DNA of 63,995 nucleotides, the filler included, from Stramenopiles sp. TOSAG23-3 (lineage: Eukaryota): the NCBI GenBank assembly GCA_900128585.1. It is 4 parts of 4 records of this genome, joined end to end, with 100 filler letters (N's around TTAATTAATTAA, not from the genome) between each part and the next. Parts side by side here need not be neighbours in the genome. Positions count along the whole stretch, not along the records: positions 1 to 16,361 come from LT642491.1; positions 16,462 to 32,812 come from LT642492.1; positions 32,913 to 49,228 come from LT642493.1; positions 49,329 to 63,995 come from LT642550.1. One strand, 5' to 3'. Each line of letters starts with the position of its first letter. Position 1 is the stretch's first letter. Shown here one piece after another: positions 859 to 63,315 of the stretch. The notes beneath the pieces were generated by a model that saw only the letters and a program-made list of their open reading frames with translations, made no database searches and was not told where the DNA came from. The translations under genes and the position numbers were made by a program.

Positions 859-984
859 TACCGATTCGGATCGTTCATGGACTCCACTCTAGATTTCAGT
901 TTTCAGTTTTCAGTTCGCAGTACATTCAGTTCGCAGTTCGCAGTACATTAATACTTTAAATAAAACAGCCAATTTTCTTGTTTT
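859..984 (+). repeat. Internally deleted copy of dispersed repeat family A, ending in the terminal module
   Basis: taccgattcggatcgttcatggac matches the reverse complement of ~49590-49616. It is followed by stuttered ttcagttcgcagtacatt and then aacagccaattttcttgtttt. Confidence 0.8.
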
Positions 985-1256
985 AATATATATTTTATAA
1001 TATATTTTATTTTTTTTGAAATTATAAAATAAAAAAATATTAATAATATATATTATTAAGAAGCGCGCGGCCACCAGCCACCACACCGCTTCTTCATCAG
1101 GGACACCCTGCTCCCCCGCCCTCCTTTTATTTCTGTACGTTTCGCGGCCTCGTACAGCAAGAATTCGTCCCAACGAAAGAAGAATTGACAGTCTGGGTAG
1201 AAAAATAAAGTTCTTAGTAACTCACGTTTCCTTCCACTCTCCCCTTGAAAATCGAA

Positions 1257-2500
1257 ATGTTGTTCTCCAGCAGAATTGTCATAGGCAAAGCGTTCGGCGG
1301 CAATTTCTTGAGGCAACGGTCTGCGTTTTCCACGGTCGGGAAACCGATCGTGTGCAAGGCGGCTATTGCATGGGAGCCAAAAGCAGAGTATTGGGACAAT
1401 GCATTGTCCGTTGAAACCGTAGTGGTCGACCCCCCAAAAGAAGGGGAAGTCCGGGTGAAAATAACGCACACGGCCCTGTGCCACACCGACGCATTTACCT
1501 TGTCCGGCGAGGACGCAGAAGGCCGTTTCCCGTGCATTCTTGGCCACGAGGCCGCCGGTATTGTGGAGTCCGTCGGGGAGGGGGTAACTACGGTGAAGCC
1601 AGGCGACCACGTGATTCCTTGCTACCAGGCAGAATGCTTTGAAGCGGACCAGGAAGACGATCATTGCCCGCGGTGTAGGGGCTACAGGCAGGGGAAGACC
1701 AACCTGTGTGGAAAAATTCGACCATACTCAGGCCTTGGGGTGATGAAAGCGGACGAGGGGGTTCGTTTCAAAACGGAAGACGGAAAGGAGCTCTTTCACT
1801 ACATGGGGACGTCCACGTTCAGCCAGTACACGGTGCTCCACCAAGAGAGTGTCGCAAAGATACGTCAAGACGCCCCGTTGGAAAAAGTGAATCTTTTGGG
1901 GTGCGGCCTGGCGACGGGGTGGGGCGCAGCGTTGAACACGGCAAAAGTTGAGAAGGACTCCTCGTGCGCAATCTTTGGACTTGGGGCCGTCGGTTTGTCC
2001 ACGATTGAGGGCTGCGTCATGGCGGGGGCAACGCGGATCATAGGTATCGACAACGATCCGAAGAAGTTTGCGGCTGCTAAGGAGTTCGGGTGCACGGATT
2101 TCGTAAACCCGAACGACTTCCCGGACAAGCCCGTCCAGGACGTCATCGTGGAGATGACCAATGGCGGCGTGGACTACAGCTTCGAGTGCGTCGGGAACGT
2201 TGACCTGATGCGCTCCGCTCTGGAATGCTGCCATATCGGGTGGGGGACGTCGACCATCATTGGCGTTGCAGGGGCAGGGAAGGAAATATCCACGCGCCCG
2301 TTTCAGCTGGTGACCGGGAGGACGTGGAAAGGCACGGCGTTCGGGGGGTTTAAAAGTACATGGACGGGAAAGTGAAAATCGACGAGTACATTACCCACAA
2401 CAAAAACTTGGACGATATCAACGAGGCGTTCAAACTCCTCCACAGCGGGGAATGCTTGCGCTGCGTTGTTTGGATGGACGAAGCCGCCCCGACGTCATAA
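1257..2500 (+). CDS. ADH5: Class III alcohol dehydrogenase / S-(hydroxymethyl)glutathione dehydrogenase (GSNOR), frameshifted near 2354
   Basis: CHTD, GHE, FGLGAVG and [21 protein letters not shown] are present. The conserved C-terminus [15 protein letters not shown]...[10 protein letters not shown] continues in another frame to TAA at 2498-2500. Confidence 0.9.
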
Positions 2501-59108: not shown

Positions 59109-62100
59109 AGAAAAGGACAAATTATTGATTAGTACAGGGATTAAACTTTGGGCAACTTAGGCGTTTTTTGAAACAAGCAAGACGTACATATAATCCTATT
59201 TGAAAAAATAGGATTGTAAGAAGAGCAGCAAGTGCACAACTCTTCGAGCAAAATTAACGGATACGGCATGGCAGAAAACGGAAAAGTCTGAAAGACGGAG
59301 CCCATCAAATATTTTTCATATGATAAAATATTATAATTTTTTTTTATTATTACAGTATTATTACAGTATATTGTTTTAATAAAAAATCTTCGTAATGTAC
59401 AATATTTACGTAATACTTTTTTATAATAGACCTACCACAAAAGCATAAATGTCAGTCGTCTTCTGTCCAGCAGAGGAGAAGTATTGTGTACAATAAAAGG
59501 AGTACACCCCGTTCAAGAGAATACTGTGACCTGTGATCCATCTCAGAACAAACGCAGAAGGATAAAGGAAGGGTTTTACAAAAAACACTTTTTCTTCCGT
59601 ACTACGAGTAAACTTTGATTTATTGAATTGAAATCTAAAATCTATTTAATCTATTAGCTGTATCGATGCTTTTCCTTCCTTCGGTGATAGGGGTATAATG
59701 GAATGATCTCATTCCCGCCATTTTTCTGTTTTCTGAGATGCCTTGGAACCGCTCTTTAACTACCTTGGTACAGCTTTCTGAAAATATTATTTTTACAAGA
59801 CTTGACGCATTATTTTATTTTCAACTTTTTACTAGGACTGTATGTAGTGTTTACAAATAATTTGTTTCCCTTCAATTGCCAATATGAGAAAATTTGGACT
59901 TATTGATGGCGCTCTTAAATAAGCCCAAAATAAAACATACATCAGCAGAGATACGCAACCTGGGTACCCCAGTTGTAGTAAGCTGAGCTTTAAGCCCCCC
60001 GGTCCTCGCAGTTTTTAAGGATTCTGCGGAACCGACTTCAAAAAGGTCACTTTTCCAAATAGTAGAATTTTCACTGCTGTGTATCATATATGGAGTTTGC
60101 AGCAAAATAACAAAACATTGTTCTCATTTTTTAAAAATAAAAACACATTATTTCATTTATTTTAATAAACTACACCAATAATTGTATGCCGAGGGCAGCC
60201 GAGGGGATCGGGTACCACGGATTTATTTTGATTCTATTTTACATTTCATGGGATCCTCTAATTGAGGTGTAACAGCAGGGAGGCCCTAAGTATAATTGAC
60301 CTAATTGTCGATAGAATGGCAGGAGCCGCTCGGTAGAGATTGTAAGCATTCATATAGACACAGCACCCTTCGCTATGCTTTTCCTATTCGGCTGATAACT
60401 CAACACTCAGGCCAATTATTTGTAGTGAATCGATCCGTTTACGTTTAGTTTAATAATAATTTTTTTCCTTCTTCTTCTTCATCACCCATTATTTTCTTCC
60501 TCCGCTCCTTCCTTGTTGTGGTGGTGTTAATTATAATAATAATAACTTATTATTTTAGTAGTAGAAGAAGAGAAGAAGGAGATAATTAAGTTTTCACTAA
60601 TCCCAAGTGATCAATGAGACCGATGAAACAGCTTCCTTTATGCGCTAAGAATTTCTTTGTTATTTATATGCTATTTGACATAATGGTATTTGCCTGCTAC
60701 ATCCTATTCAAACACTAATCTATCAAAGTTCATTAGAATACCTTGAAGTACAACCGAAAAAACATGTAAAGTTGAATTCTCATATATACAAGTATAATGT
60801 TAATAGGCAGATAGTATTTGATGTATTGCAGCGAATTGAGTATACCTCCATTTCATTAGAATACACTTTCGTGTAAATAAAATAAGATGCGGTTGTTTAA
60901 ACATGTAATTACAAAGAGTACATACAAATACCGATTAATAAAGGCATGACATTTACAGTTACTGTACCTAACTTTTGGCGTAACCCTACAAAAAGTCGGG
61001 GGTGGGACACACACCTCGCATAAGATTAGAGGAATCCCATCCATTTAATTCACAATTACATACACACAGTATGTGAATGAATCTTAATTCTTTAGCATTT
61101 AACTAATAATCACATACACACAGTATGTGGTGAATCTTGATTATATTTTCGTTCTCGTCGGTGTTATACATATATCTGGTCAGGTTGGTGGGCTAAATCT
61201 TTCTTCAGATGAAGAACTGTCGTCAATCTTCTGGGGTCTGTCTCTTTTTGGCTGGGAAAGACTTTGGTTGAAAATGATAAGCTCGTCACATCTTCGCCAT
61301 ACGAAGAGCTGCCGTCTATCTTTTGGGGTCTGTATCTTTTTAACTTCGTTTGTTTGTTCTTAGCTAAATCAACTGGCGCTGCTTTGTAGATTCCGACACA
61401 CTTTTTACGAGCTCCTTTAGTAGTTCCAATCCAGTTTTCAGAGAAATGAAAGTTTCTGTCTTTCTGGAAGACCCGCTGCAGAAGAGGGGTTGCAAAATCC
61501 TTAGCGAATCGCGTAGTAACCAAGGGTCCGCACTTGGAATCATATTGTGGGATGGTGGTATATTAGTGCGTCGCCTCTGAGGTGAGGTTCCTGCGATATT
61601 GCGTTTTGAAGAAGTGAGTACCTTTGGTTTAACCTCCATTTCTGTTGGGCGTCCCATGTATGCCCCGCGAGATTACTGGCCGTGTCCATGTGGGTGTCGT
61701 AGTTTAATGAATATCAGTTCGTGCCGATCTACTATAAGGCATGCTAGATGGTTCATCATCATTTTTCGTCGCCTCTGAAAATCAGGGAGATCGCATACCT
61801 GGTGCCCTGCTTTTGCTTTCATGGTCCCATGGTATCCAAGGACGAAGAAGATGTACCTTTTGAAAGTGTTACGAGCCGCGTTGAAAACGTTAAATTAAGA
61901 AGAAGAAGAAACCTAATTTAGAAACGTTAAATTAAGATAACTGAATTTTCTTTTTTTTTCTTTCTCAAGGTAACATATTTAAAACAAAATAGAAATATTT
62001 ACTTTGTAATTTAGATCAATTAATTAGTTTTTTTCTCCCCAAGAGATTGGTAGCTTGTCGTCGGGCGAAGAAATGCGGTCTCCATCATTTTCATCTGAAG

Positions 62101-62824
62101 GTTTTCACCAGTTAGAAAGAGAAAAAAATAGTCCCCAGGAGACTGGTGGCAGTTCCTCATCGGAAGAATAATTTAGCCCATCAACATCACCCGACGTATG
62201 TATAGCACAACGTAAGAATACCCCTGACACCCAGGATATTCGCTCCCGCTTGGATAGCCCCGGCTATACAAAAACCAATATCAGCCACTGTTCAAGCCGC
62301 AGCGAGTTGCACCGAGGATAAGGAACTGATTATACAAACGGTAATATCGTCCGTGCAGAGGATGCACTGCCTAGTATGTACTATTTTTCAAACACGCCTA
62401 GGGGTGAACCGGTTGACTAAGGTAAAAGTGGTTTCGCGGATGCCCCTTTGCCATCTGAACGTAATTGGGGTGCCAGGAGGGTAGCATCACCCCGACTGCT
62501 CTAAGAGTAAGTAACGTTGGGAACAATGTCAGGTCAATGGTGAATAGAAGAACGATTATTAATTTTCAATAGATGTTCACAAAAGCAAAAAGATAAAAGA
62601 AAAGAAACAACGAGAAAAAAAAAGCGAAAGTAATAGAAACTCGAGACGGAAGAAGAAAAGAAAATTGAGACGGAAAAAATAATAACCTGAGTGTGCTTTA
62701 CAATCAAAAACAATAATTGAAAACATTTACTTGTAATTTAGTACCTCAATACAATCCAGTAGTGAGCAATCCAGTAATGCCGCGACCCTAATTATTGGTG
62801 TCACCCTCGAACAACGGCACAGAC

Positions 62825-63315
62825 GTACAATTATCAATGCAATCGTCAGAGGAAGGGGACCTGAGCATCGCCAGCAGGACGAGATACCAACTAGCACGCC
62901 AAAGAACCACAACCACAGCAGCACTGCACACCGAATCTTCACCATCGCAACAGAACCCACAAACGCCGATTACGCACACCGACCCAAACGACCCTCTTCC
63001 GACACCTCAATTCACAAATGACATTTCCCTGACAACGAGCACCCTTAAAACATCCACGCCGCTGCTTGCAAAATCACAAAGGACTGATTCATTCACGAGC
63101 GAGACATCGGATGAGGAAGTTGACTACGGGTCTTTTGACACCGACACAAACCGACATACTGATTAGGTTCATGCATGGAGTACATATGAGAATGATAGTC
63201 CAGACTAAGTGACAAGAGTATATTTTTTTAGTAAAATCTCAGGAGCAGAGATAAGTTCGCATTACATGAAGACGATAAATTTTAACTACTTAAATGACAG
63301 ACAATTTTTGGTTTT
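62825..63315 (+). mobile_element. Longest family A copy: Ser/Thr-rich open frame to 63166, ~150-nt tail, degenerate terminal module
   Basis: Homologous to 49428-49930, 21741-22034 and 39248-39480. Confidence 0.8.

Follow-up and report, generated by a model that had tools for sequence, protein, structure and literature searches.

A short module behind genes of a marine stramenopile, the probable tail of a young family of retroposons

Several described repeat systems come close to the one reported here. Short and long interspersed nuclear elements (SINEs and LINEs) that form pairs of the "stringent" recognition type share a 3' tail. In Leishmania, SIDER1 and SIDER2 are old, degenerate retroposons that lie in 3' untranslated regions in the orientation of the mRNA and have roles in mRNA stability. 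Other retroelements are specific for a position, such as the Dictyostelium TRE elements near tRNA genes and the LINEs specific for ribosomal DNA or microsatellites, and in bacteria, REP/BIME and Correia-type repeats belong to tyrosine HUH transposases or DNA transposons. We analyzed a stretch of 63,995 nucleotides from Stramenopiles sp. TOSAG23-3 (GenBank assembly GCA_900128585.1; the window, below), in which a module of about 35 bp recurs behind genes on four contigs. The recurrence holds up and is far from random, and the most plausible interpretation is that the module is the tail of a young family of retroposons.

The window joins its four contigs by artificial N/TTAATTAATTAA spacers at 16362-16461, 32813-32912, and 49229-49328; it is eukaryotic, with few introns, AT-rich spacers, and GC-richer genes. 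A search with the 35-mer at up to 3 mismatches gave 4 matches in the window and none in 100 shuffles. The initial annotation had counted about 27 copies, and a profile built from 21 copies with at most one mismatch to a 12-base core returned exactly 27 at E ≤ 0.015, the next match being at E ≥ 5.1; these cover every cluster that had been named. The copies start at 952, 2764, 10699, 21676, 21710, 34734, 34813, 39032, 39124, 39194, 39332, 39477, 39727, 39766, 39808, 40077, 42799, 42879, 49369, 56017, 56042, 56153, 56333, 56373, 56416, 56728, and 63280. Strands are given for one reading of the module, AAACAAG..AATTGGCTGTTA.., and the putative retroposon sense is the opposite strand. Two loose 12-mer matches in coding sequence (23732 and 54480) were rejected as modules, with a profile E of 12 at 23735-23744 and no match at 54480. 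Genes were called from open reading frames scored by codon usage, and modules then occupied six of seven convergent spacers (22 modules), none of six divergent spacers, and two of eight same-direction spacers (3 modules), with the remaining two modules in contig-end stretches and none in a called gene. The earlier reading of six in seven, zero in six, and never inside coding sequence was thus reproduced with independent gene calls.

Profile scanning beyond the window gave the same placement in stronger form. At least 120 metagenome-contig loci (817 kb), none of which overlaps the window, were picked by a 20-base core of the module, and loci and window together (881 kb) held 302 copies at ≥ 10 bits. 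Seven locus pairs overlap each other and one locus per pair was dropped; the placement set comprised 117 non-redundant sequences with 831,629 bases, 389 called genes, and 285 copies. Modules occupied 77 of 99 convergent spacers (173 modules in 52 kb), 19 of 104 same-direction spacers (29 modules in 72 kb), and not one of 61 divergent spacers (0 modules in 60 kb). At contig ends, 45 of 70 stretches on the 3' side of a gene were occupied (71 modules, 33 kb), and 4 of 135 on the 5' side (4 modules, 52.5 kb). Eight copies fell outside any spacer, two of them inside retained gene calls, one of these 21 nt from the stop. All three spacer classes are equally AT-rich (GC 32-36%). When each copy was moved randomly among AT-rich positions within its own locus for 2,000 rounds, an average of 90 copies landed in convergent, 52.6 in divergent, and 59.4 in same-direction spacers, and none of the 2,000 rounds reached the observed 173 convergent and 0 divergent; convergent bias and divergent avoidance therefore hold against AT-matched shuffles.

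Because the loci had been chosen by the 20-mer, we also considered the spacers left after excluding all that contain it. In this unselected subset, 10 of 31 convergent, 3 of 82 same-direction, and 0 of 55 divergent spacers were occupied. Counted by gene end, this amounts to 23 modules at 62 convergent ends versus 4 at 82 same-direction ends, a rate per 3' end about 7-fold higher, which simple 3'-end targeting does not predict. The genes that flank modules are ordinary host genes, with cellular Pfam families on 60 of the 111 genes scanned beside occupied convergent spacers. Within same-direction spacers, 23 of 29 copies lie closer to the upstream stop than to the next start, and 16 are in sense and 13 in antisense orientation; for the copy nearest each stop in convergent spacers, the two orientations stand at 81 to 73. 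Occupied spacers hold 1 to 9 copies (a single one in 29 of the 77 occupied convergent spacers), and the distance from stop to module ranges from 22 to 460 nt. Altogether, the preference for the 3' side of genes and for convergent spacers is genuine and very pronounced.

Another sequence class shows the mirror image of this placement. It consists of long CT/GA (TTC-type) tracts at the promoter side of genes, in the window at 4869-4963, 7327-7673, 13070-13500, and 32575-32780 and also in the loci; a tract of at least 25 nt is present in 18 of the 61 divergent spacers, in 13 of 97 same-direction ones, and in only 2 of the 99 convergent ones.

Evidence that the copies arrived by insertion comes from direct repeats, one adjoining the terminus of the module and its duplicate standing at the opposite, inner end of the copy. 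Such repeats with a length of at least 10 nt were found at 42 of 169 strong copies, compared to 4 when the flank was taken 36 nt further out and 10 when it was reverse-complemented; at 12 nt or more, the count was 24 against 2 and 3 in these controls, and at 14 nt or more, 6 against 0 and 0. The duplications measure 10-16 nt (11-16 nt in the 31 copies with at least 11 nt) and are complex in sequence, and the inserts between them span 32-561 nt, all ending in the module and 13 of 31 no longer than 62 nt. A complete small insertion at 34719..34812 (+) illustrates the arrangement: a 74-nt element (34729-34802), made up of the module at 34734-34770 and a partner piece termed T1, has the 10-nt direct repeat ATGTTGTTTT on either side (34719-34728 and 34803-34812, counted from the sequence), and a further module copy (34813..34843, +) starts right behind the second target-site copy. 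Several target sites lie inside, or directly behind, older copies, and insertion of this kind gives rise to head-to-tail pairs and clusters. The fresh, duplication-bearing copies obey the same placement restriction as the whole set, since the 31 copies with at least 11 nt comprise 20 in convergent spacers, 6 at contig ends on the 3' side, 4 in same-direction spacers, 1 unassigned, and none in a divergent spacer.

The module (module A) forms one constant end of otherwise variable units. Across 265 copies, conservation starts sharply at T/A-AAAACAAG, is highest at AAAATTGGCTGTTA, and has faded by about 40 nt. Contigs of a DNA metagenome run differ widely in their flanks, and their matches break off at the module's outer end, at 34732, 39032, 39123, 40115, and 42913; summed contig depth in repeat-bearing bins is thousands-fold above that of genes, a value that shows many carriers, not copy number. 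Inward of the module stands one of several bodies, B2, B3/C, T1, or D. Partner pieces almost always have module A ahead of them in the same orientation (B2 in 52 of 63 cases, T1 in 30 of 34), and most copies of module A are without a long partner. When three long copies were used as queries, their 146, 123, and 18 matches over the module fell to 0-7 by 350-400 nt, and matches to the D unit fell from 151-166 at the module end to 6-8 further in. The longest long unit of the window (62744-63316, about 570 nt) has relatives at 49425-49960 and 21676-22300. Among 123 neighboring pairs of copies, 83 are direct, 27 of these 21-42 nt apart, and 40 are inverted. In copies located via their partner piece, the share of the consensus letter is 0.84-0.97 per site; the copies are young.

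The long units carry an open frame that is degenerate: its two copies in the window share 55% protein identity over 102 residues, and the underlying DNA is about 77% identical over 477 nt. This frame is the end of a longer one that is intact elsewhere, in the metagenome locus L022 and in P0121, a protein of 744 amino acids; the 3' end of the P0121 family together with its downstream sequence is the long repeat unit, with three copies in the window. The family has 302 relatives among cluster representatives (64-419 amino acids among the 150 listed); searches of Pfam, NCBIfam, and the PDB gave no match for it. Another repeated frame, L022:3-920, is 74% identical to one in L017 and falls in no family, L022:3-6122 being the segment that carries the multi-copy frames; an OTU-protease-like motif suspected in L022:3-920 was not confirmed, and a search among longer proteins found nothing.

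Target-primed reverse transcription leaves just this kind of trace, with duplications of variable length around a unit that has one constant and one variable end. Two features of LINE/SINE-type elements, target-site duplications of variable length and a constant 3' end with variable 5' truncation, are seen here, the second with the caveat of recurrent starts taken up below. We put at roughly 0.65 the probability that a retroposon family of the non-long-terminal-repeat (non-LTR) type in an uncultured marine stramenopile has a constant 3' end (...TAAATAACAGCCAATTTTCTTGTTT-3') of which the module is the reverse complement. An RNA with this tail would serve as template for target-primed reverse transcription at a nick, and the reverse transcriptase would often stop early, leaving copies as short as about 32 bases. 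The tail would be the part that the enzyme requires in cis, which would account for its being shared by the unrelated bodies B2, B3/C, T1, and D. New copies often land beside or inside older ones, as the nesting shows, and so build up the clusters and head-to-tail pairs.

Several observations weigh against a retroposon tail. Start points of long copies recur (62744, 62854, about 62983, and 63031), which gives them a modular look unlike random truncation. There is no poly(A) tail, the end reading ...CTTGTTT(T) with short A runs at few copies; LINE clades without such a tail exist, so its absence does not exclude the class. The flank, in module orientation, is only mildly T-rich (0.40-0.49 against a background of 0.34). 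No reverse transcriptase or endonuclease with the tail was found among 21 + 13 open reading frames of the window, 7 of L022, and 111 flanking genes (881 kb), and just one long frame, that of the P0121 family, extends into the tail; it has no recognizable domain. Duplications of at least 10 nt accompany only a quarter of the strong copies (42 of 169), and about 3 of the 31 longer ones (in L106, in L040, and at window position 39766) are pieces of neighboring modules and may be artifacts. Finally, no empty-site allele appeared in the seven overlapping locus pairs, five of which are 98.7-99.9% and two at least 99.96% identical; joints between modules in assembled contigs were rejected as candidate empty sites, since they link module to module and are repeat artifacts. 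A tRNA scan of the window found none and no Rfam family was assigned, which, for units whose full-length heads are not delimited, speaks neither for nor against a SINE-type internal RNA polymerase III promoter head (derived from tRNA, 7SL, or 5S RNA). The 20-mer had no match in viral contigs.

As one of two options, the initial annotation had proposed a mobile element that targets termination zones. Mobility is supported by the duplications, the truncation series, the nesting, and the varied flanks, and the 3'-side and convergent bias stands with it; active targeting, as opposed to survival in harmless sites, is a possibility only. The placement would result from selection against promoter-side insertions in a very compact genome or from directed integration, and the data are compatible with both. 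In a marine population of huge size, selection could remove inserts of even 32 nt from promoter-side DNA; alternatively, termination zones or existing copies may guide integration. In its strongest form, which we regard as a tentative possibility, integration would be drawn actively to the zone in which convergent RNA polymerase II genes terminate, cued by termination-linked chromatin, by torsional stress or nicks, or by an existing copy, with the modules perhaps serving as orientation-independent barriers to read-through. If true, directed integration between convergent genes would be a "safe haven" mode undescribed for non-LTR elements, and to our knowledge no retroposon targeting to the zone between convergent RNA polymerase II genes has been described.

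The other option was a domesticated 3'-end cis element, which would be kept as a bidirectional terminator, as a roadblock formed by a DNA-binding protein, or as an insulator against transcriptional collision. We consider this unlikely. The extreme restriction to the 3' side (77 of 99 convergent versus 0 of 61 divergent spacers) is what such an element would show, as is the proximity of 23 of 29 same-direction modules to the upstream stop; its independence of orientation fits a site that works at the DNA level, and the core contains words that may be read as CCAAT-like and YAACNG-like. Modules are also present in RNA-library contigs with varied flanks, one of which runs from the zinc-finger/RRM gene 30 nt into the module at 40077-40114. 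However, most 3' ends are without a module when unselected spacers are counted (10 of 31 convergent and 3 of 82 same-direction occupied), the number of copies per occupied spacer is highly variable at 1 to 9, and the module A part is conserved no better than the adjoining partner sequence. Very short copies with fresh duplications argue that modules arrived as insertions and are not leftovers under selection. Structure gives no help either, for the single module has no fold beyond that of shuffles (z of -0.65 to +0.83) and only inverted pairs are predicted to fold, the one at 39766..39842 forming as RNA a perfect hairpin of -38.7 kcal/mol (z -11); in Rfam 15, the window had no match at gathering score, and the sub-threshold matches were miRNA-like hairpins on inverted pairs. 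No canonical poly(A) hexamer, AATAAA included, is enriched past stops, where the top hexamers are pieces of other repeats, and the RNA data, which are assembled contigs only, contained neither a loose end at poly(A) nor a poly(A)-tailed contig. Because orientation is random, most gene ends lack a module, spacers hold 1 to 9 copies, no fold is present, and the distance to the stop varies between 22 and 460 nt, the module does not act as a general signal of 3' ends, and the proposal of a domesticated element found no support. The single RNA-library contig that enters a module shows one copy that is carried along passively in a read-through or 3' untranslated transcript.

Less probable is a family of miniature inverted-repeat transposable elements, DNA transposons of which module A would be the terminal inverted repeat. 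Four units bounded by inverted copies of module A suggest it. At 39124..39228, a module (39124-39159, +) adjoins an inverted unit of A and T1 (A at 39194-39228, -); at 39332..39515, an inverted pair (39332-39366, +, and 39477-39515, -) surrounds sequence related to the long unit; and two profile-defined pairs stand at 39766..39842 (39766-39801, +, and 39808-39842, -) and at 56373..56446 (56373-56406, +, and 56416-56446, -). Internal deletion derivatives and an AT-rich, TA/TTAA-like junction point the same way. The neighbors of a copy are, however, mostly direct (83 versus 40 inverted), 29 of 77 occupied convergent spacers contain one copy by itself, and the duplications, at 10-16 nt, have no one fixed length and bound units with module A at one end only.

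A rolling-circle, Helitron-like element is more improbable still. Helitron-like elements have a constant 3' end, 5'-truncated or chimeric copies, tandem ends, and captured gene fragments, and the single constant end, the truncated mosaic bodies with common internal pieces, the head-to-tail ends, the degenerate gene fragments within the long unit, and the junction in T/A runs all resemble them. Helitrons are not known to produce a target-site duplication, whereas duplications of 10-16 nt are seen here; moreover, no hairpin lies near the end, the end does not read CTRR, and no Rep/helicase was found among the 21 long window frames, the L022 frames, or the 111 flanking genes. Equally improbable is a non-mobile origin, in which members of a multigene family would have the module in common as their 3' untranslated region, with segmental duplication or gene conversion as the means of spread: the long unit is indeed the end of the P0121-family frame plus downstream sequence, in three window copies, but modules stand behind unrelated genes, Sec24, RabGAP, MCM5, and many others among them, flanks differ between copies, and copies of 32-62 nt with their own flanking duplications already contradict it. 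For a comparison of orthologues, the at least 120 loci contained no orthologue of any window gene and no diverged orthologue pair among themselves; a Sec24-like gene in L022 was rejected as orthologue of the window Sec24, being a paralogue of 25% identity.

The remaining copies of the window show the same range of forms. On contig 1, the profile places a copy at 952..985 (-), followed by three CTGCGAAC (B-type) repeats at 913-943, and single copies at 2764..2801 (+) and 10699..10736 (+), the latter in the convergent spacer 10571-10925 according to the gene calls. Contig 2 carries a head-to-tail pair of profile matches at 21676..21740 (+; 21676-21712 and 21710-21740, spacing 34), behind which B3/C-type sequence and a partial long unit reach about 22300 (+). 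On contig 3, a profile match at 39032..39065 (+) lies 8 nt past the stop of the RabGAP gene identified by Pfam, and one at 40077..40114 (-) starts 57 nt past the stop of the zinc-finger/RRM gene. Between them, the unit at 39540..39758 (-) consists of module A (39727-39758) and partner D, measures about 220 nt, and has six further occurrences elsewhere; other D units, including those in RNA-library contigs, have 39 extra bases at 39619/39620 with a GTAC repeat at the bounds, and the copy at 39540..39758 is a deletion variant. B2 + B3-type partner sequence at 39845..39921 (+) has no full module A ahead, and the contig also holds a degenerate profile match at 42799..42828 (-) and a unit of module A (42879-42914) and B2 at 42831..42914 (-).

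Contig 4 begins within a unit of module A (49369-49407) and T1 at 49339..49407 (-), cut at the contig start, followed by the long unit at 49425..49960 (+) made up of a partial A, B3, and C, with a degenerate open frame running opposite at 49577-49972. The profile further places two head-to-tail copies at 56017..56073 (+; 56017-56041 and 56042-56073) and a degenerate one at 56153..56177 (-); the copy at 56333..56368 (-) is followed by B-type sequence. A second D unit (56528..56763, -; module A at 56728-56763) is 84% identical to 39540-39758 and starts 105 nt past the MCM5 stop. In the long unit at 62744..63316 (-), module A (63280-63316) is joined to B3, C, and a degenerate open frame (62792-63166, +). 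The 3.6 kb at 59109-62740 are low in GC, with a largest open frame of at most 132 amino acids; the part at 61930-62725 resembles other loci at 70-79% identity, and the whole may be degenerate repeat DNA upstream of the long unit.

Pfam families were assigned to 19 of 21 long open reading frames of the window, among them MCM5, Sec24, an ABC transporter, a BRO1 protein, RabGAP, and acyl-CoA dehydrogenase. Among named sequences, those closest to MCM5 come from stramenopiles, at about 50-54% identity, with unnamed environmental proteins up to 73%, and window DNA is present in marine and seawater metagenome runs of 16 studies; by sequence, we read the source as an uncultured marine stramenopile. 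GC at third codon positions is about 0.6-0.75 on contigs 1 and 2 and about 0.37-0.39 on contig 4 (MCM5, E2 acyltransferase), and the module is found on all four contigs. At 53760-55601, two open frames adjoin in the same frame, with TAG at 54681-54683 followed directly by ATG and a DUF389 domain that begins in the second frame; the pair could be two genes, a case of read-through, or an error. A unit of about 1.3 kb is repeated three times in tandem at 29637-32482, with small open frames at 30371-30970 and 31713-32231 that have no Pfam family. Three 84-nt repeats coding a leucine-rich-repeat-like motif on the + strand (2965-3218) stand between the alcohol dehydrogenase and acyl-CoA dehydrogenase genes, where no long open frame was called.

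Compact protist genomes have little room for mobile DNA, and the sites at which elements survive show what such a genome tolerates. Here, one young family sits in a third or more of convergent spacers and in 0 of 61 divergent ones. Should integration be targeted, the family would offer a novel route by which a retroposon reaches harmless sites; if selection sorts the insertions, it would measure how little the promoter-side spacer absorbs, even of an insert of about 32 bases. In practical terms, the family breaks assemblies of an abundant uncultured lineage at nearly every convergent gene pair and inflates apparent coverage there by orders of magnitude. Two 12-base core strings returned only chance primer matches in five unrelated papers, nothing comparable was listed in a literature search on transposable elements between convergent genes in compact genomes, and the main-text portions consulted of two papers on genomes of uncultured marine stramenopiles (PMC5778133 and PMC8237690) contain no repeat analysis.

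Compared with the described systems, LINE/SINE pairs with a shared tail are alike in having a constant 3' end on unrelated bodies, variable 5' truncation, duplications of variable length, and AT-rich sites; the present family differs in that neither a partner with a reverse transcriptase nor a tail of poly(A) or simple repeats was found, many copies are only 32-62 nt long, the tail-adjoining frame has no known domain, and copies are nearly confined to convergent spacers. Like the Leishmania SIDERs, it is a short family, putatively derived from retroposons, that lies mainly behind genes of a compact protist genome and is co-transcribed with them; unlike those old, mRNA-oriented elements, the module copies are young and stand in either orientation. 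It shares with position-specific retroelements the use of a narrow class of harmless sites in a compact genome, and some of those elements likewise insert beside their own copies, whereas the favored site here would be the zone between convergent RNA polymerase II genes and targeting is a possibility only. REP/BIME and Correia-type repeats are also short, modular, extragenic repeats behind genes, combined directly or inverted and co-transcribed; they belong to another domain of life and another mechanism, so that the likeness is one of placement only.

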